From the NCBI GenBank assembly GCA_965203325.1, contig OZ241875.1:2304001-2368000 (forward strand): a stretch of 64,000 nt of DNA, read 5' to 3'. This document shows, in pieces, positions 3,389 through 17,936 of this stretch (position 1 is the first letter of the stretch; each line of letters begins with the position of its first letter). The position numbers were made by a program, and so were the translations under genes. Source of the DNA: a bacterium (lineage in GTDB: Bacteria > UBA8248). A model generated the notes under the pieces. The model was not told the DNA's origin. It worked only from the letters and a program-made list of their open reading frames with translations, and did no database searches.

Positions 3389-5818
<2,430 letters not shown>

Positions 5819-6128
5819 GCTCTCGAAAATCTCCTGCAGACGGCGTTATCTGGGGCCGTCCCAAAAGCTCCTGAAACCGGAGAGGGGCGAACCTGGGCGG
5901 GCGAAACACAAACACTGTCTTTTACCACAAAATGGGTGTGCCGGCAAACCAGGACAACCACTTGCGCAAACTTTACATGAGACGTAAGTGGCGTTTTTTC
6001 AAAAAGTTATGAGCTTCGGCCCTCTTTATTTCCAGCGATTGCCCAAGCGCTTTCATTCATGGACAATAAGGAGGCTCGGAAACGATGGTAAAATTCAGAT
6101 CCCGACCTGTTCTTGGGTGAGGAGAATT

Positions 6129-6641: not shown

Positions 6642-9149
<2,508 letters not shown>

Positions 9150-10265
9150 TCAATCTATCCTTTCAACCGTTGCGTCTCGAACCAGAAAAGTTCTTCCGTC
9201 AATCTCGTTTGCGCTCAAGCCGGGCTCCTCAGTCGACGTGATGAACGTTTGCGCTCCCAAGGAGCCGAGAAACAACAGCATCCTCTTTTTCCTGTCCACG
9301 TCGAGCTCGGAACCCAGATCGTCGAGTAAAACGACGGGGGGCTCCCCTCTCCTCTTCTTGTATTCCTCGGCGTTCGCCGACACCAGCAATATCGTAGTGA
9401 GCCGCTGTTCGCCCTGGGAAGCAACATCCTTCGCCCGGCGCCCCTCCCAAAACAGGTGGAAATCATCGAACCGGGGACCCCAAAGCGTCGCTTTTCTCCT
9501 TGCTTCCTCTCTCGCGAGCCTCCCGGCAGTCGCCTGCAGGCCCTCTCTTATATCCCCTTCCGCTTCCTCGTCTCCTCCCGGAAGACCATTGGCTTCATAT
9601 GCCACCGAAACCCTGGACCCCTGCGTTTCCCCAAACAAACTCTCCAGGTGATTCAGCCGGTTTTTCAGTGAATTTATGTATCTTTTCCTGCGGACGATAA
9701 TGCGGGCGGCCACCTCGATCAATCGCTCCTGCCACACCTGAATCATAGCAGATTCAGACTCGTTTCTCAAAAGATGATTCCTCTCCGAGAGCAGTTTCGC
9801 ATAGGCCCTGGAATCTTCGAGATGGGCCGGTTCGACGGCCGCGATCGCCTGATCGAAAAAACGTCTCCTCGCTCCGGGGCCCTCCTTGACTATCTGGGTC
9901 GTCTCGGGAAAAAAGACGATGACGTGGGAGCTATCGAGATAGGGCATCAAGCCCCGCAACTCCTGCCCGTCCTTCTTGTATTTTCTCTCACGTCCGCTTA
10001 CCGCAGCCTCAAGCCTTGTTTCCGCGCCGCCTTCGCCCCCGGAGAACACGCCGGACGCATACATTCCCCCTGCGCCGTGAAGCACCATCTTCTCCCTGGA
10101 TGCCCGCCGAAAAGAACGCAGATGCGAGAGGTAGTAAATGGCTTCCAGCAAGTTCGTCTTGCCCGATCCGTTGTTGCCGAAAATGTAGTTAAACCCAGGG
10201 TGTGGTTTGAACCCGAGCCTTGGGTAGTTCCTGAAGTTTTTAAGAGTGAGCTCGATGAGGCGCAA
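9150..10265 (-). CDS. recF: DNA replication/repair protein RecF
   Basis: FRNY, Walker A GNNGSGKTNLLEA, SQGEQR signature, LLDDLGSELD; synteny with gyrB. Confidence 0.95.
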   Translation of the reverse strand: MRLIELTLKNFRNYPRLGFKPHPGFNYIFGNNGSGKTNLLEAIYYLSHLRSFRRASREKMVLHGAGGMYASGVFSGGEGGAETRLEAAVSGRERKYKKDGQELRGLMPYLDSSHVIVFFPETTQIVKEGPGARRRFFDQAIAAVEPAHLEDSRAYAKLLSERNHLLRNESESAMIQVWQERLIEVAARIIVRRKRYINSLKNRLNHLESLFGETQGSRVSVAYEANGLPGGDEEAEGDIREGLQATAGRLAREEARRKATLWGPRFDDFHLFWEGRRAKDVASQGEQRLTTILLVSANAEEYKKRRGEPPVVLLDDLGSELDVDRKKRMLLFLGSLGAQTFITSTEEPGLSANEIDGRTFLVRDATVERID

Positions 10266-10498
10266 AGGATATCCTCAGATGCTAATTCTTTTAGAACTAT
10301 ATAATACTTAAATAGCAGTAGTAGCGGGAGCGGTGATATTGTGGAAAACCTCGCAAGATGTTCAAAAAAGAGCGCTTTCCCGGCCAGGGGGGTGTGGAAT
10401 TATTTGTGATTCGAGGCGAATGGCTGGGTGTTTCTTCTTTGGGCGCGAGGAATGCAGGGCAATTAACGTGGTTATCCACAATTCTTTCCACGGGTGTT
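10266..10498. promoter_or_regulatory. oriC part 2 (unwinding region): DnaA boxes, DnaA-trio-like repeats and AT-rich tract
   Basis: TTATCCACA 10472-10480; TGTGGAAAA 10340-10348; TGTGGAATT 10393-10401; TAG-CAG-TAG-TAG 10313-10324; AT-rich tract ~10283-10312. Confidence 0.8.
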
Positions 10499-11830
10499 TC
10501 AAGAGATATCTATCTTTTGCTCGAGTGTTTGGATGGTGGCGGAGAGAGACGGGTCTGTTTTGATCAGGCCCTCGATTTTTTTGGTGGAGTGAATCACCGT
10601 GGAGTGATCCTTCCCGCCGAAGCGGCGGCCGATTTCCGTGGTCGAGGCGCGCGTGAGTTTCCTCGCGAGGAACATGGCGATCTGCCGGGGAACGGCGAAA
10701 GAGCGCGAGCGGTTTTTCGATTTCAGGTCGGCGACCCGGACCTGGAAGTGCTCGGCGACGATTTTCTGGATGTTGTCTACCGAGGAATTGCGGGTGGGGT
10801 CGCGGATGATGCCTTGCAGTATCTCCTGCGCGATGGGAAGGTCGATCTCGATGTCGTGCAGGGAAGCGTAGATGTTGAGTCTGATGAGGCAGCCCTCGAG
10901 TTCGCGGACGTTGGAGCGAACCCTGTCGGCGATATAGTGGGCGACCTCCCTGTGGAGGACGAGATCTTGTTCGCTCGCTTTTTTCTGCAGGATGGCCACT
11001 TTGGTCTCGAAGTCCGGTGCGCCGATATCCGCCATCATGCCTGAGCTGAAGCGCGACCTGAGGCGATTCTCCAGCCCCGGCGTGTCTCCGGGTGTTTTAT
11101 CGCTCGTGATGACGACCTGTTTCCTTTCTCGTTGCAATGAATCGAAAGTGAAGAAGAACTCCTCCTGGGTGCGTTCCTTTCCGGCGATGAACTGTATGTC
11201 GTCTATCATCAGGACGTCTACTTGTCGGTATTTGCTCCTGAAGGCGGCCATCTGGTTTTGTCGAATCGAGGCAATGAGGTCGTTGATGAAGCTTTCCGAA
11301 GAAGTGTAGAAGATGCGCGTCCTCGGCTGTCGATCGAGAATGTGGTGGGCGATGGCGTGCATCAGATGGGTTTTTCCGAGCCCCACCCCGCCGTAGATGA
11401 AAAGCGGGAAGAGGGAGGCTCCCAGGCCGTCCGCCAGGCGGAGGCTGCAGGCATGGGCGAATTGGTTCGATCCTCCCACCACGAAGTTGTCGAAACGATA
11501 CTTGGGATTGAGAAAGGCCGGCTTCTCCGGGGGCTCTTTTTCTTTCTCGGCCGGGACCGGCGCGTCTGAGACGATAGTTCCGTTTGTCGGCGCGTCGCTC
11601 GCCGAGAGGGTGATCATCACGTTCGGCCCGGCCTCTTGTTCGAGGATGTCCTGGATGATTCCCCAGTAGCGTGAGCGCAGGGTCCCCGCCGTAAACGGAT
11701 CGGGGGCCTGAATCGCCAGCGTGTTCTCGCTCGAATTCAACTCTTCGATGCCGGCAAACCAGCGGGAGAACGTCTGGGGGGAAACCTCTTGCTCGATTTT
11801 TTCCGCGCAACGCTGCCAAAGAGTCGTCAT
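10499..11830 (-). CDS. dnaA: Chromosomal replication initiator DnaA
   Basis: LNPKYRFDNFVVG, YGGVGLGKTHL, IDDIQF, QEEFF, SNVRELEG, GGKDHSTVIH; start set at ATG 11830 (MTTLWQ) because the longer ORF runs through DnaA boxes. Confidence 0.97.
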   Translation of the reverse strand: MTTLWQRCAEKIEQEVSPQTFSRWFAGIEELNSSENTLAIQAPDPFTAGTLRSRYWGIIQDILEQEAGPNVMITLSASDAPTNGTIVSDAPVPAEKEKEPPEKPAFLNPKYRFDNFVVGGSNQFAHACSLRLADGLGASLFPLFIYGGVGLGKTHLMHAIAHHILDRQPRTRIFYTSSESFINDLIASIRQNQMAAFRSKYRQVDVLMIDDIQFIAGKERTQEEFFFTFDSLQRERKQVVITSDKTPGDTPGLENRLRSRFSSGMMADIGAPDFETKVAILQKKASEQDLVLHREVAHYIADRVRSNVRELEGCLIRLNIYASLHDIEIDLPIAQEILQGIIRDPTRNSSVDNIQKIVAEHFQVRVADLKSKNRSRSFAVPRQIAMFLARKLTRASTTEIGRRFGGKDHSTVIHSTKKIEGLIKTDPSLSATIQTLEQKIDIS

Positions 11831-11834
11831 AAGG

Positions 11835-11980
11835 AGAGCCAATCCACAAAATTCAAGGCGCGACGAGGGCTTTTTGCGCCGCGCAGGAACGGGTTTTTCC
11901 ACAGGGCGAGATAAAACTTGACCCGGGGGAGCACTTTTCCACAAAATGCCTCAAAAGGCAAGGGTTTTCCACAAAAAACA
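11835..11980. promoter_or_regulatory. oriC part 1 / dnaA promoter region with clustered DnaA boxes
   Basis: Three same-orientation TTTTCCACA at 11895-11903, 11935-11943 and 11965-11973, plus AATCCACA at 11841. Confidence 0.75.
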
Positions 11981-12096
11981 TGGCATTTTTCCGGCAAACG
12001 AGGATTTTTCTTCTTCGAAGGAGCAACGAACGGTACGCGAAGCCGGTCTCCCGTCCATTCGGGGCCGGTAAGTTCGAGCACCCCCGCAGGAGGTTC

Positions 12097-12125
12097 TTGA
12101 CAATCGGGATTTTGGTGGCTACTTT
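12097..12125 (+). promoter_or_regulatory. Sigma70-type promoter for the rpmH operon
   Basis: TTGACA (12097-12102), 17-bp spacer, TACTTT (12120-12125). Confidence 0.65.
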
Positions 12126-12210
12126 ACGCTCGGCTTCTTGGGGAAGCCTTTCTCAAGCGTTATATGTCGGGTTTAACGCTCGGCTTTTGGGCCGGCAGAC
12201 GGAGTAGTTG

Positions 12211-12351
12211 GTGAAACGAACTTACCAGCCGAACAGAAGAAAACGAGCGAAGACGCACGGGTTTCGCCGCCGGATGAAGACCACCGGCGGACGCGCAATC
12301 ATCAGGCGTCGACGGATTAAGGGCCGCAAGCGGCTCGGCGTTTCCGCCTAG
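12211..12351 (+). CDS. rpmH: 50S ribosomal protein L34 (absent from ORF track)
   Basis: GTG start; translates as [53 protein letters not shown]. Confidence 0.97.
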
Positions 12352-12395
12352 ACGGCGCGCCGGGCTTGCCGACCCTCGACCGGGAGGGCGCGGGC

Positions 12396-12743
12396 ATGGA
12401 TGAGGGCTTCCCGCCGGAGCGGCGAATCCGCAAGGGGAGCGACTTCGCCGCCGTTCTCAGAAAAGGACGCAAACGCAGGTGTCCGTACTTCACGCTGCAT
12501 ATCCTGCCGACTCCTTCTCGGGATTGCGCGCGCCTCGGCATCATCGCGTCGCGCCGGGTGGGCGGCGCCGTCCAGAGGAATCGCGCCAAACGGCTCCTCC
12601 GCGAGGTGTTTCGGCGTCACGGCTCACGGCTCCCCCCAGGAGTGGACCTTGTGGCCGTGGCGAGGAACTCGATCGCCAAGGCGAGGCTAGAGGATGTTGA
12701 AAGGGCGTTCCGCAACGCTTTCCACGGGAAGACGAATTCCTGA
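12396..12743 (+). CDS. rnpA: Ribonuclease P protein component
   Basis: RLGIIASRRVGGAVQRNRAKRLLRE (RNR motif); follows rpmH. Confidence 0.93.
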   Translation: MDEGFPPERRIRKGSDFAAVLRKGRKRRCPYFTLHILPTPSRDCARLGIIASRRVGGAVQRNRAKRLLREVFRRHGSRLPPGVDLVAVARNSIAKARLEDVERAFRNAFHGKTNS

Positions 12744-12981
12744 AAAAGAGATCGGCCCCGTCTCTCGGGCGATCCGTGTTCTGGCGATGGCTCTGATTCG
12801 GGGATATCAACTCGTTTTGTCTCCCGTGATGCCGGGCAGTTGCCGCTTTTCACCCTCTTGTTCTTGTTATGCGCTCGAGGCGTTCAGGCGCCACGCGCCC
12901 GCTCGGGCCTTGTGGCTCACCGTGCGCCGCATCGGGCGCTGCCATCCATTTCACCCCGGGGGAAACGATCCGGTTCCCTGA
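12694..12981 (+). CDS. yidD: Membrane protein insertion efficiency factor YidD (true start may be downstream)
   Basis: CRFSPSCSCYA...RIGRCHPFHPGGNDPVP. Confidence 0.92.
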   Translation: MLKGRSATLSTGRRIPEKEIGPVSRAIRVLAMALIRGYQLVLSPVMPGSCRFSPSCSCYALEAFRRHAPARALWLTVRRIGRCHPFHPGGNDPVP

Positions 12982-13007
12982 GGGGTCCGGCGGAGGCGCC
13001 TTACATC

Positions 13008-14651
13008 ATGGAAAGAAACGCGATTCTCGCCGCCGTCTTGTCGATGGCGATACTGATCGGCTGGCAATACCTCGTCGTGAAGCCCATGGAAGACGAGCAG
13101 GCCCAGAAGCAGAAGGTGGCCAAGGAGCGCGCGGCGGCACAGAACAGGGAACGAGGGAGCGCGGCGAGTACGCCGCTCAGGGCGCCCGCCTCCGTCGCCG
13201 GCCAGCCGTCCGCGCCCGCCGCTCCGTCTGCGCCGACGGAAGCCGCTCCCGGCCGGCGTGTTCGCGTGGACGTGGGCGACGCGGTGTATGAGTTGACCAA
13301 CCGGGGCGCGGGGTTTTTGTCCGCGCGACTCCTGAAATACAAACAGGGCGAAAAGAATTCTGTCCAGCTCGTACCTCCGGGCCGCCCGGACGTACGGCCC
13401 CTTTTCTTCTGGGGCGGAAAGACGGCGCAGCGGCTCAACGAGGCCTCCTACGAGGTCGAGGGCGGCGACCTCTCGCTCTCGAAGACGAATCCGGAAGGGA
13501 CGGTTCGCTTCGTCTACCGCGGCGCCGACGGCCTCTCGGCGGAGAAGGCGCTCACCTTCCGCCATAACGAATTCAACATCCGTACGAGGATTCGCGTCAC
13601 CCGCCCCTCCGGGGCCGAGGCGATGGGAATCGTCTGGGGGCCGCGCGTCGGCGGGAGCGACGGCAACACCTACGGCGGCGTCATCGAGGGCCCCATGAGC
13701 TTCGTGGGCGAAGAACTCGAATACGACTATCCCGAGGAGGCGAAACCCGTCACCCACGGTGAGAGCCTCAAGTGGACATCGCTCCAGTCGAAGCACTTCA
13801 TCGCGGCGCTCATCCCCCGAGGCGGGGCGGGCGGAGCGGAGATACGCCTTCTCTCCCAGACGGACGACTTAAGCGAATACGCCGCCATCGTTCCTTTCGC
13901 GCAGGGAAAGGACATCGATGCGGCCTTCGACGTCTACGTGGGGCCGAAGGCGTTGGACCACCTCGAAAAACTCAAGGTCAACCTCGAGGACTCCCTGGAC
14001 TACGGGATGTTTTCTTTCATCGCCAAGCCGCTCATGTCGATCCTGCGTTTTTTCCACGGGTTCGTGGGCAACTGGGGCGTGGCCATCATCCTGCTGACCA
14101 TCCTGGTGAAGATTATCTTCTACCCGCTCACCCACGTCAGCATGCGCAACATGAAGGAGATGCAAAAACTCCAGCCGCGCATCACGCAACTCCGCGAGAT
14201 ATATAAAGACGACAAGAACAGGCTGAACGAGCAGACCATGGCCTTGTATAAGGAGCACAAGGTCAACCCGATGATGGGCTGCCTGCCCATGCTGATACAG
14301 ATACCCGTCTTCTTCGGGTTGTACGAGGCGCTCCTGGTGTCGATAGAGTTGCGCAACGCGCCCTTTTTCGGCTGGGTGCAGGACCTCTCGGTGCAGGACC
14401 CCTATCACGTGTATACGATACTCATGGGCGCTTCGATGTTCCTGCAGCAGAAAATGACGCCCACCGCGGGCGACCCCACCCAGGCGAAGATGATGATGCT
14501 CATGCCCGTCGTCTTCACGGGCATGTTCATCTTCTATCCCGTGCCCGTGGGGCTGGTGATCTACTGGCTGGTGAACAACCTGCTCTCCATCGCTCAGCAA
14601 TTCTACGTGAACCGTTCCGTTCAGCCGCCCAAGCTGGCCGAGGAGAACTGA
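13008..14651 (+). CDS. yidC: Membrane protein insertase YidC
   Basis: N-terminal TM, periplasmic domain, GNWGVAIILLT, GCLPMLIQIPVF, LVIYWLVNN. Confidence 0.96.
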   Translation: MERNAILAAVLSMAILIGWQYLVVKPMEDEQAQKQKVAKERAAAQNRERGSAASTPLRAPASVAGQPSAPAAPSAPTEAAPGRRVRVDVGDAVYELTNRGAGFLSARLLKYKQGEKNSVQLVPPGRPDVRPLFFWGGKTAQRLNEASYEVEGGDLSLSKTNPEGTVRFVYRGADGLSAEKALTFRHNEFNIRTRIRVTRPSGAEAMGIVWGPRVGGSDGNTYGGVIEGPMSFVGEELEYDYPEEAKPVTHGESLKWTSLQSKHFIAALIPRGGAGGAEIRLLSQTDDLSEYAAIVPFAQGKDIDAAFDVYVGPKALDHLEKLKVNLEDSLDYGMFSFIAKPLMSILRFFHGFVGNWGVAIILLTILVKIIFYPLTHVSMRNMKEMQKLQPRITQLREIYKDDKNRLNEQTMALYKEHKVNPMMGCLPMLIQIPVFFGLYEALLVSIELRNAPFFGWVQDLSVQDPYHVYTILMGASMFLQQKMTPTAGDPTQAKMMMLMPVVFTGMFIFYPVPVGLVIYWLVNNLLSIAQQFYVNRSVQPPKLAEEN

Positions 14652-14658
14652 CGCGAAA

Positions 14659-15750
14659 ATGAATTTCAGCGGCGACGGCTGGGGCGACGGCGGCATGGAA
14701 GGCCCCGGCTTTCATCATTTTCCTCCCGGCGAGAACCCGGACCTGACCCCCTTTGCGGAGATGTCGGGCCGCGCGCTCAGGCGCGTCATCGAGCGCATGG
14801 ATCCCGAAATCCTCGTTCTGGCGCTTCGCGATGCCGATTCGCGGGTGGTCGAGCGTGTGCTCAGGAACGTATCTTCCAAGAACGCGGTCCATATGCGCGA
14901 GGAAATCAAGCGCGCAGGCTCCATGGAAAGCGAGCGAAGCGTCGAGGCCCGCCAGATGTTGATGCAGACCGCCTACGCCATGAAGAACCACGGCGACATT
15001 ACGTTCGACGGGCCTGCCGACGACTCCATCCCCCCGCTGGACCGGACGCTCGAAGAGGGGCTCGCCGCGTTTCACTCCTCAGGAGCCAAGGCCGAGCACG
15101 CCGTGTCGCTCATCGTCGTTCTGGCCGCGCGGGCGGAACAGCACGGGCTGCTCTCGCTGGAGCCGGCTCTTGAGCGGAGCCCGGACGGGATTTTCTCCAC
15201 CGGCCTTCGGATGCTGGTGGATCAGGCGCCCTGGGATGAGGCCGAGATGATTCTCGCCCGGCAAATCGAGTCCTCCCTCGCAGCGACGGAAAGGAACAAG
15301 GAGATCGCCATCGAGGGGGCGGTGGCGATTCTCGAGGGCGTGAGCGAGGATCGTGCGCGCGCGCGGCTCGTCGCCTTCCTGCCCGAGGGCGAGGCGGATT
15401 ACGAGCGCTTGCCGGGCGTCCGGTTTTCTCCCTCGGCCCAGGCGGCGGTCGACATCATCAGCCTGTGCGTGGAGCTCGCAGGCCTGGCGTCGCGCGATGA
15501 GGGCGGCGCGATAGCGGAGCGCCTCGAATGGATTCAGGAACCGCTCCTCAAGACGGGGCTCAAATGGGCGCTCGAGGGCGCCACGATAGATGACGTCGAG
15601 AGGCTCCTCAGCCGAAAGGGGCAGACGCGCCTCGACAGGGAGCGCAGGAAACTCGAATGCCTGGCGGAGGGTTTCATGCTCATCAGAGAGGGGCATCCTC
15701 TGGATTTCATACGAGAGGCGCTCGGCGGCTATATCGAGGACGAGGCTTGA
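14659..15750 (+). CDS. FliG C-terminal-like domain fused to two MotA cytoplasmic-like repeats; no TM segments
   Basis: LVLALRDA..VLRNVSSKNAVHMREEI..G..EARQ..HGDI aligns by eye with FliG_C; GLLSLE..FSTGLRMLVD and IEGAVAILEG..RLVAFL align with MotA; a second repeat follows. Confidence 0.7.
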   Translation: MNFSGDGWGDGGMEGPGFHHFPPGENPDLTPFAEMSGRALRRVIERMDPEILVLALRDADSRVVERVLRNVSSKNAVHMREEIKRAGSMESERSVEARQMLMQTAYAMKNHGDITFDGPADDSIPPLDRTLEEGLAAFHSSGAKAEHAVSLIVVLAARAEQHGLLSLEPALERSPDGIFSTGLRMLVDQAPWDEAEMILARQIESSLAATERNKEIAIEGAVAILEGVSEDRARARLVAFLPEGEADYERLPGVRFSPSAQAAVDIISLCVELAGLASRDEGGAIAERLEWIQEPLLKTGLKWALEGATIDDVERLLSRKGQTRLDRERRKLECLAEGFMLIREGHPLDFIREALGGYIEDEA

Positions 15751-16343
15751 GCAAGGGATCCTCTCGTGTGGAGTGGACGCTTCCCGTCCGAAACCGCCAT
15801 CTCCTGCTCACGAGGGGAAGGCGCCGGGCCATGCCGCCCGTCAAGACGCTGCGCGCCCTGGGCCTTGAGCGCGGCATGAGTTTCCTGGACATCGGCTGCG
15901 GACCCGGTTATTTCTCGGTTCCCGCCTGCAGGGTGGTGGGAAAGAATGGTCGCGTGTTCGCCTGCGACATCTCCCCGGTGATGATCAGGGAACTCAAATC
16001 GTCAGCCGAAGAGCGCGGCTACGCGAATCTTACGGCGAAGCGAAACCAGGGTTCGCGAATTCCCTTTCCGGATGCGTGCGCGGACTTTGCCCTCATCGCG
16101 TTCGTGCTCCACGGAGTGTCCGACGTCCAGCCCATGTTCGCCGAGTCAAGACGCGCGATGAGGAAGGGCGCCGCCATCACGCTCATCGACTGGCACAAGG
16201 AGCCCATGGACATGGGGCCGCCCCTCGAGGCGCGCTTTGAGCCCGAAGAACTCGTAAACGAGTTGCGCGATGCGGGCTTTCGCAAAGCCCGTTGGTGGGA
16301 TTTCGACGGCAACACCTATTTCGTCTCCGCAAAAGCGCCCTGA
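15747..16343 (+). CDS. Class I SAM-dependent methyltransferase
   Basis: LDIGCGPG motif I, ACDIS, IPFPDACAD; TTG start overlaps upstream stop. Confidence 0.8.
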   Translation: MSKGSSRVEWTLPVRNRHLLLTRGRRRAMPPVKTLRALGLERGMSFLDIGCGPGYFSVPACRVVGKNGRVFACDISPVMIRELKSSAEERGYANLTAKRNQGSRIPFPDACADFALIAFVLHGVSDVQPMFAESRRAMRKGAAITLIDWHKEPMDMGPPLEARFEPEELVNELRDAGFRKARWWDFDGNTYFVSAKAP

Positions 16344-16402
16344 CGGCTGTCAAGGTGGAGGCGTTGCGCTATAATCCGGCACTCATGGAGGCGGCGAGCA
16401 AG

Positions 16403-17164
16403 ATGGAAGACAAATCCTCGATTCAAGGACACGTGGCGCTCGTGACGGCGGGCGCGGTGGGCATCGGCGAGGCAATCGCCGAGCGCCTCGCGCATGAGGG
16501 CGCGCGCGTCGTGTTGTTGGATCTCGACCAGACGCAAGGCGAGGCGACCGCGCAGCGGATACGCGAGGCGGGGGGCGAGGCCCGCTTCGTCAATACCGAC
16601 GCCACCTCGGCGAGCGAGGTCAAAGCGGCCGTGGCCGAGGCGCTTCACGAGTGGGCGCGCATCGACATTCTGGTGAACTGCGCAGGCGGCTTCGTGGAGA
16701 ATCCGCTCATCGAAGATTTGGATGAGGCGCAGTGGCGCAGGGCCGTGGACTTGAATTTGAAAAGCGCCTACCTGTGCGCGCGCGAGGTGATGCCCGTCAT
16801 GAAGAAAAGACGCTATGGCCGCATCGTGAGCATCTCCTCCCAGTCGGGCCGCGACTCCGTTATCGAGACGGGCTTGGCCTACAGCGCCGCCAAGGCGGGC
16901 CTTTTCGGCTTTGGGAGGCGGCTGGCGGTGGAAGTCGCTCCCCACGGCGTCACGGTGAACACGGTGGCCCCGGGCGTGGTGCTCACCCCGAGGACGGCCG
17001 TGGTCCATAAGGACAGACTGCCCGAGATAATCGCGAAAATACCGGCGGGCCGCGTGGCGGACGCCGCGGACATCGCCGACGCCGTGTGGTATCTCGCCAG
17101 ACCCGAGGCGCGTTACGTCACGGGCGTGACGCTCGACGTCAACGGCGGCAGGTACGTTCACTAG
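16403..17164 (+). CDS. SDR-family oxidoreductase (paralog 1)
   Basis: TAGAVGIG, NCAG, YSAAK, VNTVAPG. Confidence 0.9.
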   Translation: MEDKSSIQGHVALVTAGAVGIGEAIAERLAHEGARVVLLDLDQTQGEATAQRIREAGGEARFVNTDATSASEVKAAVAEALHEWARIDILVNCAGGFVENPLIEDLDEAQWRRAVDLNLKSAYLCAREVMPVMKKRRYGRIVSISSQSGRDSVIETGLAYSAAKAGLFGFGRRLAVEVAPHGVTVNTVAPGVVLTPRTAVVHKDRLPEIIAKIPAGRVADAADIADAVWYLARPEARYVTGVTLDVNGGRYVH

Positions 17165-17177
17165 AAAGGACAATCGC

Positions 17178-17936
17178 GTGCATGAGCGATCCTCGATAAA
17201 AGATCACGTCGCCATCGTCACCGGCGCGACCGACGGCATCGGCCTGGCGACGGCGATACGCTTCGCGGACGAGGGCGCGAAGGTGGTGATTACGGGGCGC
17301 GACCCGGACCGCGGCTCGGCGGCCTTGGCCACGGTGAGCGCGCACGGCGACGCCATATTCGTCCAGGGCGACGCCGCCCGGAAAGAAGACGTCGACCTTC
17401 TCTTCGCCCGCACGCTCGGAACGTGGGGGCGCCTCGACATTCTGGTGAACTGCGCGGGCGGTTTCGTGGAGGTGCCCGATATCGAGGACCTCGACGAGGC
17501 GGAGTGGGAAAAGATCGTCGAATGGAACCTCACGAGTTGTTATCTCGCCACCCGGGCGGCGGCGGCTCCGATGAAAGAGAGAGGCTATGGCCGCATCGTG
17601 AACGTCTCGTCCATCTCCGCGCGCGACGCCCTGGCGAACGTATCCCTGGTCTACAGCGCCGCGAAATCCGCCATGCAGGGCTTCACGAGGAGACTCGCGG
17701 TGGAACTCGCTCCCCACGGCGTCACGGTGAACGCCGTGGCCCCGGGCGTGACGCTCACCAAGCGCTTTCGCCTGGTGCACCAGGAGCGCGTGCCGCAGAT
17801 AGTGGCGAACTTGCCGGTGGGCTTCGGCGGAGAGCCCGAGGACATCGCCGATGCGATCTGGTATTTCTCCACCCCCGGTTCGGGCTACGTCACGGGCGCG
17901 ACCATCGACGTGAACGGCGGCCAGTATGTGAACTAG
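17178..17936 (+). CDS. SDR-family oxidoreductase (paralog 2)
   Basis: TGATDGIG, NCAG, YSAAK, VNAVAPG. Confidence 0.9.
   Translation: MHERSSIKDHVAIVTGATDGIGLATAIRFADEGAKVVITGRDPDRGSAALATVSAHGDAIFVQGDAARKEDVDLLFARTLGTWGRLDILVNCAGGFVEVPDIEDLDEAEWEKIVEWNLTSCYLATRAAAAPMKERGYGRIVNVSSISARDALANVSLVYSAAKSAMQGFTRRLAVELAPHGVTVNAVAPGVTLTKRFRLVHQERVPQIVANLPVGFGGEPEDIADAIWYFSTPGSGYVTGATIDVNGGQYVN

Follow-up and report, generated by a model that had tools for sequence, protein, structure and literature searches.

A window of 64,000 nucleotides (the whole stretch analysed; contig OZ241875.1 of GenBank assembly GCA_965203325.1, positions 2,304,001 to 2,368,000 of the forward strand) from a bacterium of the lineage UBA8248 contains, directly after yidC, an open reading frame (ORF) for a protein of 363 amino acids (Table 1). 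In a first reading made from the sequence alone (hereafter, the sequence-only reading), this protein had been described as a soluble chain joining the C-terminal domain of the rotor protein FliG to two copies of the cytoplasmic part of the stator protein MotA. Profile searches against FliG_C and MotA gave significant matches for both. In particular, Pfam FliG_C (PF01706) was found on residues 34-115 (E = 1.6e-12, 48.1 bits vs. a cut-off of 23.3), in agreement with the position proposed earlier (about residues 30-116), and as the match spanned only positions 26-107 of FliG_C, the beginning of the Pfam domain was absent. When the protein was scanned against Pfam, no other family exceeded its threshold: FliG_N and FliG_M (PF14842 and PF14841) and the MotA_ExbB channel domain (PF01618) gave no match at E ≤ 10, PilZ, the domain of motor brakes such as YcgR, MotI and FlgX, was not among the matches at the same limit, none of Jag_N, KH and R3H was present in the scan, and MgtE_N (PF03448) appeared weakly on residues 33-81 (E = 0.019, 16 bits vs. 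a cut-off of 25.9). The full-length FliG equivalog model TIGR00207 reached 31.8 bits vs. a cut-off of 226.7, and a PADLOC scan of the protein together with seven relatives or neighbours returned no defence families.

The C-terminal half was matched to the MotA cytoplasmic domain, here called TGI (torque-generating interface), a name given to the expanded form of this domain, which is specific to flagellar stators according to PMC12505986. The NCBIfam full-length MotA/MotP/PomA models aligned residues ~137-205 with MotA ~66-135 (best E = 6.2e-11), at scores far under their equivalog cut-offs, as a fragment would give. Searching the PDB sequences with phmmer returned FliG (1qc7, E = 8e-05) and MotA (6ysf/8ucs, E = 4e-04); in the latter, residues 138-202 were aligned with positions 70-134 and residues 205-245 with positions 214-252 of one chain, so that two MotA segments are matched contiguously in repeat 1 and the TM3-TM4 hairpin (transmembrane, TM) is skipped. 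Regarding repeat 2, residues 253-328 were aligned with B. subtilis MotA 64-140 (phmmer; E = 0.099 when run alone) and residues 317-362 with positions 208-254 of the lineage's own MotA (BLASTP). Moreover, the two repeats matched each other with 29% identity over 93 ungapped residues (BLASTP, E = 1e-07), and by this sequence comparison the two MotA-like halves are a genuine internal repeat. No TM segment was found, since the highest Kyte-Doolittle mean over 19 residues (KD19) was 1.46 and no window reached 1.6. The proposed loop-to-C-tail repeats and the lack of a hydrophobic TM stretch were thus both upheld, and an architecture of one FliG_C plus two tandem TM-less MotA TGI copies, homologous to both proteins, is nearly certain.

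Table 1. Features of the yidC region and of the FliG_C-TGI protein (window positions; residues refer to the 363-residue protein).
Feature	Residues	Position	Strand	Basis
rpmH		12208-12351	+	ORF list
rnpA		12366-12743	+	ORF list
yidD		12694-12981	+	ORF list
yidC		about 13005-14651	+	Pfam 60KD_IMP + YidC_periplas
Whole coding sequence, soluble FliG_C + 2x MotA-TGI protein	363 plus stop	14659..15750	+	ORF list
N-terminal tail, Gly/acidic-rich, predicted disordered	1-27	14659..14739	+	pLDDT 30-43 (residues 1-20)
FliG C-terminal (FliG_CC) domain	28-116	14740..15006	+	Pfam FliG_C, VIA structural match
Torque-helix equivalent (K74, E81, E82)	73-85	14875..14913	+	modelled helix, ungapped alignment to Salmonella FliG 241-300, conservation counts
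Conserved linker plus short helix	117-139	15007..15075	+	G118, P119, D122, P125, P126 (near-)invariant
MotA cytoplasmic TGI repeat 1, helices fused straight to MotA C-tail-like helix	140-245	15076..15393	+	phmmer, NCBIfam MotA
Inter-repeat linker	246-257	15394..15429	+	D247 and P252 invariant; dN/dS 0.02
MotA cytoplasmic TGI repeat 2	258-363	15430..15747	+	BLASTP repeat 1 vs. 2, phmmer, BLASTP to lineage MotA
Class-I methyltransferase, downstream		15831..16343	+	Pfam Methyltransf_25/11

The AlphaFold2 (AF2) model of the full chain, built from a 19-row alignment, was all-helical, with a mean pLDDT (predicted local distance difference test) of 87.3 and a pTM (predicted template modelling score) of 0.81, which for a three-domain chain would imply a defined mutual arrangement of the domains. 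The same pattern of helices occurred twice, first at residues 145-162, 164-173, 178-188, 192-226 and 230-238 and again at 258-280, 283-291, 295-305, 310-344 and 348-360; the linker at residues 117-139 reached a pLDDT of 87-92 despite being mostly non-helical, and the N-terminal tail differed in length and sequence between family members in the family alignment. The top Foldseek matches, with a probability of 1.00, were all chains of MotA or FliG, and 8ucs_C of the MotAB-FliG complex ranked first among the MotA chains. Using VIA-align, residues 21-118 were superposed on the FliG_C of 8wiw_3 with Z = 15.0 and a root-mean-square deviation (rmsd) of 1.4 Å over 91 residues (1lkv, Z = 14.8), and residues 140-363 on MotA chains (69-250) with Z = 14.7 and an rmsd of about 5.5 Å over ~150 residues. 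Overall, the MotA/PomA chains gave Z values of 14-14.7 against the repeat region, and ExbB/TolQ only about 5. The structural match of the protein to the MgtE cytoplasmic domain reached only 5.7. A generic helical-repeat resemblance, unrelated to FliG or MotA, could be argued from the middling Z values that all-helical proteins often get and from the NCBIfam scores under the equivalog cut-offs; its likelihood is next to negligible, as FliG_C was found at twice the gathering score, PDB MotA and FliG were matched by sequence only, and a profile of the TGI half recovered canonical MotA proteins with three or four TM segments. Furthermore, when 48,161 representative PDB chains were searched independently of Foldseek, exactly 10 reached Z ≥ 8, all of them FliG or MotA/PomA, followed by a gap down to 6.5.

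Folded alone, repeat 1 lost confidence (pLDDT 72.7, pTM 0.49), with its TGI helices at 54-68 vs. 89-96 in the full chain, and against the same 48,161 chains this model, with the TGI helices trimmed for low pLDDT, gave generic helical matches only (Z ≤ 5.7). Because that model is weak, the splice of the TGI to the C-tail rests on the sequence alignments. When the TGI half and FliG_C were predicted as separate chains, the score was 0.00 twice and the controls were unfolded, which counts neither for nor against docking.

The residues of the torque contact were then compared. In the motor literature, FliG_C is 'docked between adjacent MotA monomers' in 8UCS, solved via a FliG_C-MotA fusion (Johnson et al., PMC11302681), R90 of one MotA lies opposite E98 of the adjacent copy (Deme et al., bioRxiv 10.1101/2020.05.12.089201), and the contact pairs are R90/D288-D289 and E98/R281 (mBio 2025, PMC12505986). 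The torque helix was mapped by ungapped alignment to Salmonella FliG, and conservation was counted over 19 family members. The charge pattern that the sequence-only reading had seen by eye was kept: K264 corresponds to R57 (R in 16/19), R281 to K74 (K in nine, R in nine and H in one, hence basic as K/R in 18/19), D288 to E81 (15/19) and D289 to E82 (17/19), and the equivalent of R297 (position 90) was variable. On the stator side, the equivalent of MotA E98 in repeat 1 (E168) was E in all 19, R158, two residues before the R90 equivalent of repeat 1, was R in 18/19, and so was R279, one residue after the R90 equivalent of repeat 2. For repeat 1, the register to E. coli MotA given by hhalign equalled that of phmmer to C. 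sporogenes MotA. Among 12 proteins of the same architecture from several phyla, the R281 equivalent was basic in all 12 and the D289 equivalent acidic in 11; in repeat 1, the equivalents of R90 and E98 were R and E in nine each, and in repeat 2 the R90 equivalent was R in nine, with the E98 equivalent acidic in only three. The contact charges of the FliG-MotA interface thus appear to be retained in the family and in its cross-phylum relatives, judging from these alignments. A stricter version, in which exactly one complementary charge is kept per repeat, was discarded for being only approximately true by the 19-member counts.

The genome containing the window (4.39 Mb in one contig, 95.5% complete) had no match to FHIPEP/FlhA, Flagellin_N or FliM, which extends to the whole genome the lack of flagellar genes first noted in the window. 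No true FliG was found, the sole FliG_C match being the ORF under study, and no other protein with FliG_C or TGI-like domains occurs in this genome. A word-indexed protein search returned 32 relatives with 45-99% identity, with source names including Nitrospinota and 'bacterium', and 26 loci were collected at one genome per species, in metagenome-assembled genomes (MAGs) titled Nitrospinota, Nitrospinaceae, Tectomicrobia or 'bacterium' and in one Methylococcaceae bin. Flagellar genes were profiled across 51 genomes of the phylum. Within the genus, the gene was present in 20 of the 22 other genomes (one of them split), and FlhA or FliM in none of the 22. Outside the genus, seven genomes had the full-length gene, six of them together with FlhA and FliM (G011, G012, G013, G037, G041 and G047) and one, G040, without either; FlhA and FliM without the gene were found in G010, G036 and G008, and G048 had FliM only. 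Canonical proteins were also identified in the sister genera, namely a FliG (L033, from G012), whose N, M and C domains were all recovered in the same kind of scan, and a MotA (L034, from G036). As the gene co-occurs with FlhA/FliM in six sister-genus genomes and persists without flagella in the genus, it originated in, or was acquired by, a family with flagella and survived when these were lost. It is not a recent fusion of local genes, as it matched the lineage's own FliG nowhere by BLASTP and its MotA with only 22% identity (E = 9e-10). As a separate observation, the sister-genus genome G039 (one contig, 98% complete, no FlhA/FliM match) encodes a complete FliG of 354 amino acids with FliG_N, FliG_M and FliG_C (L032:3029-4090, minus strand; G039:C1:2844000-2851000), beside a GFO/IDH/MocA oxidoreductase and a TctC-family receptor, and represents another type of orphan rotor protein in the family.

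Selection was measured as the ratio of non-synonymous to synonymous rates (dN/dS) between the window gene and 19 loci of the genus, using 187 pairs with dS > 0.1. The overall value was 0.16 (0.18 for FliG_C, 0.15 for repeat 1, 0.12 for repeat 2 and 0.25 for the N-terminal tail), and the C-terminal half was exactly 239 residues long in 25/25 intact loci; the gene is vertically inherited in the genus under purifying selection. A function independent of the flagellum is probable in the genus, with good confidence. The idea of the sequence-only reading that the module was repurposed outside flagella was therefore favoured by the retention of the gene in 20/22 genomes lacking FlhA/FliM, while its alternative idea of a motor brake or decoy cannot be the job in this genome because there is no motor. 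Such a role is possible only in the six sister-genus genomes that carry both the gene and flagellar genes. More generally, a regulator of the flagellar motor (brake, clutch, decoy or assembly factor), with its TGI repeats binding the C-ring FliG or its FliG_C domain binding the stator MotA, and left over in a non-flagellated genus, would explain why the domains are both faces of the torque contact and why the gene is paired with FlhA and FliM in those genomes, with canonical FliG and MotA in sister genera; moreover, YcgR and FlgX are reported examples of soluble proteins that bind the stator or rotor. This is nevertheless quite unlikely, since this genome and the other 22 of the genus are without a motor, yet 20 of those 22 keep the gene at the above dN/dS. 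In addition, the gene lies outside flagellar clusters, being found after yidC even in the flagellated G037 (L024), none of five distant homologs has flagellar neighbours, and similarity to the lineage FliG is missing.

The strongest constraint was not found in the domains. The inter-repeat linker at residues 246-257 had a dN/dS of 0.02 (174 pairs), the lowest of the protein, and the non-helical linkers at residues 112-128 (window 14992-15042) and 240-259 (15376-15435) were its most conserved parts, with a pLDDT of 74-92 and lineage-specific sequence. Their invariant residues are G112, P119, D122, P125, P126, F240, L241, P242, G244, D247, P252, P258 and S259, and in the cross-phylum relatives these motifs were missing and replaced by a 'WPPG' motif. 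Both linkers may be real working surfaces. The main rival explanation builds on them: an adaptor or scaffold in which the rotor-stator contact has fallen out of use. The three helical domains would merely provide a stable body, and a partner would be bound through residues 112-128 and 240-259. It would account for the extreme constraint, the many invariant residues, the replacement of the motifs in distant relatives and the poor conservation of the R90 equivalents. On the other hand, it leaves the conserved charges of the torque helix and of the E98 equivalent unaccounted for, and the joint presence of FliG_C and TGI in 36/50 distant proteins matched by the TGI profile argues for the two domains working together, so an adaptor of this kind is considered unlikely.

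This wider family was searched for with a profile of the C-terminal 239 residues, without FliG_C columns, against 1.84 billion representatives. A total of 569 proteins were found at E ≤ 0.001, 42 of them at E ≤ 1e-10. Among the matches listed, 147 were outside the family, of which 103 had no TM window and 28 were canonical-MotA-like (at least three TM windows, <320 amino acids). Pfam FliG_C was present in 36 of the best 50 non-family matches (35 above the gathering score). Some had FliG_C first followed by two repeats in ~360 amino acids (P0041, P0047, P0052, P0057, P0060, P0061 and P0078), colinear with the window protein at 18-24% identity, and others had FliG_C last, after up to four matched TGI stretches, in 600-1059 amino acids (P0033-P0037, P0039 and others). 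Added domains comprised ECF sigma factors (P0046, P0074), LRR (P0048, P0062), TPR (P0040, 1699 amino acids) and SpoIIE (P0068). The examples include a Latescibacterota MAG (P0052) and a Treponema sp. (P0033), and the nearest ESM Atlas clusters were from Thermodesulfobacteriota and Bacillota. The clade of the window is a diverged branch of this family, with its own linker motifs and placed after yidC. No description of soluble proteins pairing FliG_C with TM-less MotA domains was found in the full-text literature, subscription journals and supplements being outside this scope, and the words 'soluble' and 'fusion' do not occur in the available text of the MotAB evolution paper (PMC12505986). By its sequence features and the literature found, the protein would be a previously undescribed combination of known domains.

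A locus search with alignment A6 returned 34 loci, of which 28 matched the FliG_C part alone and six the full length; the FliG_C-only loci examined were ORFs of ~339 amino acids matched at their C-terminus, that is, ordinary fliG. Alignment A5 yielded no confirmed relative in metagenome contigs. Five of the six full-length loci were annotated (L037 was left out, as no single ORF covered the match), and their neighbours were EPSP synthase and SHMT; a CHAT-NACHT-TPR protein; a sulfatase; a rhamnosidase next to a Reg_prop histidine kinase; and DUF3418 and Reg_prop proteins. A Reg_prop (two-component regulator propeller) protein thus adjoins two of the five (L035:2465-3175 and L067:3719-5305), and P0068 has Reg_prop and SpoIIE fused to a TGI-like unit; a link of the family to signal transduction is possible, if weak. 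A FastTree phylogeny was built from 172 TGI units and 68 columns, with 10 of the 182 extracted units left out for ambiguous TM counts. Canonical MotA units clustered in it (six label changes vs. 25-32 in 200 shuffles), only 10 of its 169 branches were well supported, and no split parted soluble from membrane forms; the soluble TGI units may have either one origin or several. Some further features of the family were observed. Several relatives of ~370 amino acids with the same architecture, from other lineages, have a hydrophobic start resembling a signal peptide or anchor (A4 columns 1-45), which is odd for cytoplasmic motor surfaces, with KD19 maxima of 1.32 (P0078), 1.48 (P0100), 1.74 (P0105), 1.84 (P0060) and 2.19 (P0130). 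The pairs P0036/P0037, P0039/P0046 and P0045/P0055 share the size of their longest contig (15321, 7908 and 2949, respectively) and may be neighbouring paralogs. Lastly, contig Ga0115002_10000104 carries, ~18 kb apart, an ORF of ~339 amino acids with a C-terminal match (L057, probably fliG) and a soluble TGI + FliG_C protein of 464 amino acids (L060).

The ORF is the last gene of the rpmH-rnpA-yidD-yidC operon, next to dnaA and recF. Its ATG is at 14659 and the stop codon of yidC ends at 14651, which confirms the 7-nt spacing reported earlier, and no terminator-like site was found between them. No motB or pomB neighbours the ORF, which is flanked by yidC and the methyltransferase gene. The overlap of 94 nt between the latter and the ORF in the ORF list is an artefact of the longest-ORF rule, and in L026-L029 the methyltransferase match begins past the stop of the FliG_C-TGI gene. 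Beyond the methyltransferase gene, at 16292-17936, lies a tandem pair of SDR (adh_short) paralogs that share ~52% identity, and almost all of the related loci retain this pair. As far as their contigs extend, the related loci also keep the order recF, dnaA, rnpA, yidD, yidC, FliG_C-TGI gene, (methyltransferase), SDR, SDR. In L024, L025 and L027, ~1.1 kb separates yidC from the FliG_C-TGI gene; genes for Thioredoxin_4 (DsbA-like) and MauE/DoxX membrane proteins (Pfam) occupy this place in L024 (2907-3717), comparable ORFs do so in L027 (~5095-5963), both loci being from more distant, flagellated relatives, and the window is without such genes there. Moreover, cumulative GC skew is lowest at 8-10 kb; recF and dnaA are encoded on the minus strand, and the genes from rpmH to yidC on the plus strand. 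The window probably spans the replication origin (8000-12400).

Jag/KhpB is the usual neighbour of yidC in Bacillota and some other phyla. An accessory factor of YidC, or of membrane-protein or ribosome biogenesis, taking the place of Jag/KhpB might be read from the 7-nt spacing without a terminator, from the gene order kept wherever the contig allows and from the absence of Jag_N and R3H in this genome. This explanation is very unlikely: the adjacency is lineage synteny only, and it carries little weight because the whole 12-kb region is syntenic; the gap of ~1.1 kb interrupts it in three loci, and none of the five annotated distant homologs adjoins yidC; furthermore, the Pfam scan of the protein found no RNA-binding or membrane-binding domain. 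Jag_N was matched in only 3/14 control genomes, so the remark of the sequence-only reading that jag 'usually' follows yidC was overstated, and its hint of a jag replacement found no footing, jag being no universal yidC neighbour.

Other ion-driven motors were also considered. Three loci of the MotA_ExbB family are present in the genome, and the one examined (L002) encodes a TolQ/ExbB-like protein followed by an ExbD/TolR-like gene. A cytoplasmic partner of such 5:2 motors (TolQR/ExbBD-type), gating them via its FliG_C-like domain, would thus have candidate motors at hand. Its chances are slim, as all three loci lie away from the gene, the repeats resemble ExbB/TolQ only with the Z of about 5 given above, and TolQ/ExbB lack the expanded TGI that is bound by FliG_C, as stated in PMC12505986.

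The explanation preferred here, to which a probability of about 45% is assigned, is a self-contained latch of FliG_C and TGI that works independently of the flagellum. The two TGI repeats would pack side by side like neighbouring MotA subunits, forming one cleft of the kind that grips the FliG_C torque helix in the motor. This cleft would hold the FliG_C of the same molecule (in cis) or of another copy (in trans), and the resulting compact latch might be read by a partner through its open/closed or monomer/oligomer state or through the conserved linkers. That the FliG_C-TGI contact is kept as the working principle is conceivable, at rather less than even odds. As the window protein alone carries FliG_C and TGI in its genome, any retained contact would be intramolecular or between its copies. 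Moreover, one FliG_C sits between two adjacent MotA domains in the solved motors, so that the contact unit is 1:2, the ratio of the chain itself. The conserved charges, the pTM of 0.81 and the loss of confidence of repeat 1 when modelled alone would fit a compact, mutually packed body.

Several observations weigh against this latch. Conservation is higher in the two non-helical linkers, which are lineage-specific, than in the domains. The R90 equivalents are poorly kept in the family (position 160 in repeat 1, R in 4/19; S278 in repeat 2, R in 6/19), the E98 equivalent of repeat 2 (position 286) is E in only 11/19, and the E. coli MotA register comes from a weak hhalign match (probability 3.4%, E = 0.013). 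In the model, residues 140-363 superpose on a single MotA chain (69-250) at an rmsd of about 5 Å, so the repeats may lie end to end rather than side by side. Furthermore, the gene was not found in G017 and G028 of the genus (93-94% complete) and is split in G024 (L026). Expression is merely hinted at by contigs of a relative in one sponge metatranscriptome library, in which DNA was possibly present; these contigs, 88-95% alike, cover 13437-14659 for yidC and 14849-15105, 15176-15349 and 15393-15778 for the gene, and cannot show transcription. The split copy itself (L026:6055-7090, equal to G024:C4:1268187-1269276) consists of two adjacent pieces matching profile positions 1-200 and 201-364, is the only broken one of the 26 loci, and may be due to either a frameshift or a sequencing error.

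Compared with the known systems, the window protein shares with FliG the FliG_CC fold (residues 28-116) and the charge signs of K264, R281, D288 and D289, while it lacks the FliF-binding FliG_N and the FliM-binding FliG_M, does not keep R297, and comes from a genome without C-ring or export apparatus. Its repeats align to the TM2-TM3 loop (~70-135) and the post-TM4 C-tail (~214-252) of MotA/PomA (6ysf, 6ykm, 8ucs, 8brd), with the E98 equivalent invariant in repeat 1; in contrast to these, it has no TM helices, no PF01618 and no MotB neighbour, its R90 equivalent is not conserved, and it is a tandem duplicate in one chain instead of a pentamer. In the engineered MotA-linker-FliG_C fusion (8UCS, PMC11302681), both domains are likewise covalently joined. 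The fusion is an artificial pentamer embedded in the membrane and carries FliG_C at its C-terminal end, whereas the window protein is natural and soluble, with FliG_C at the N-terminus and exactly two TGI units. The other family members use the same building blocks, some of them, unlike the window protein, in reverse order, with up to four TGI stretches or with extra domains. Finally, the N-terminal domain of MgtE (PF03448, regulatory in the Mg2+ channel) is another FliG-related helical domain working outside the flagellum, from which the window protein differs in having neither CBS nor the MgtE channel domain and a PF03448 score below the cut-off.

The contact between FliG and MotA is where the flagellar motor makes torque, and it is not known to have been seen outside membrane complexes; an engineered MotA-FliG_C fusion was needed to solve it (PMC11302681). 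A natural soluble chain of one FliG_C and two TGI units could ease the study of this contact by crystallography, NMR and mutagenesis. The persistence of the gene under selection without flagella, together with the fusions to sigma factors and sensors, points to motor parts taken up for other work and bears on the origin and spread of such parts; annotators are also warned that a FliG_C match alone is no sign of motility. As a tentative proposal, with the odds clearly against it, the FliG_C torque helix and the MotA TGI pair may be an ancient and portable protein-protein latch used by bacteria beyond the flagellum. If so, the rotor-stator contact would be a particular case of a general regulatory module, which stands alone here and is coupled elsewhere to sigma factors, phosphatases and LRR/TPR sensors, and proteins like that of the window would represent a natural, soluble, single-chain version of the torque-generating interface.

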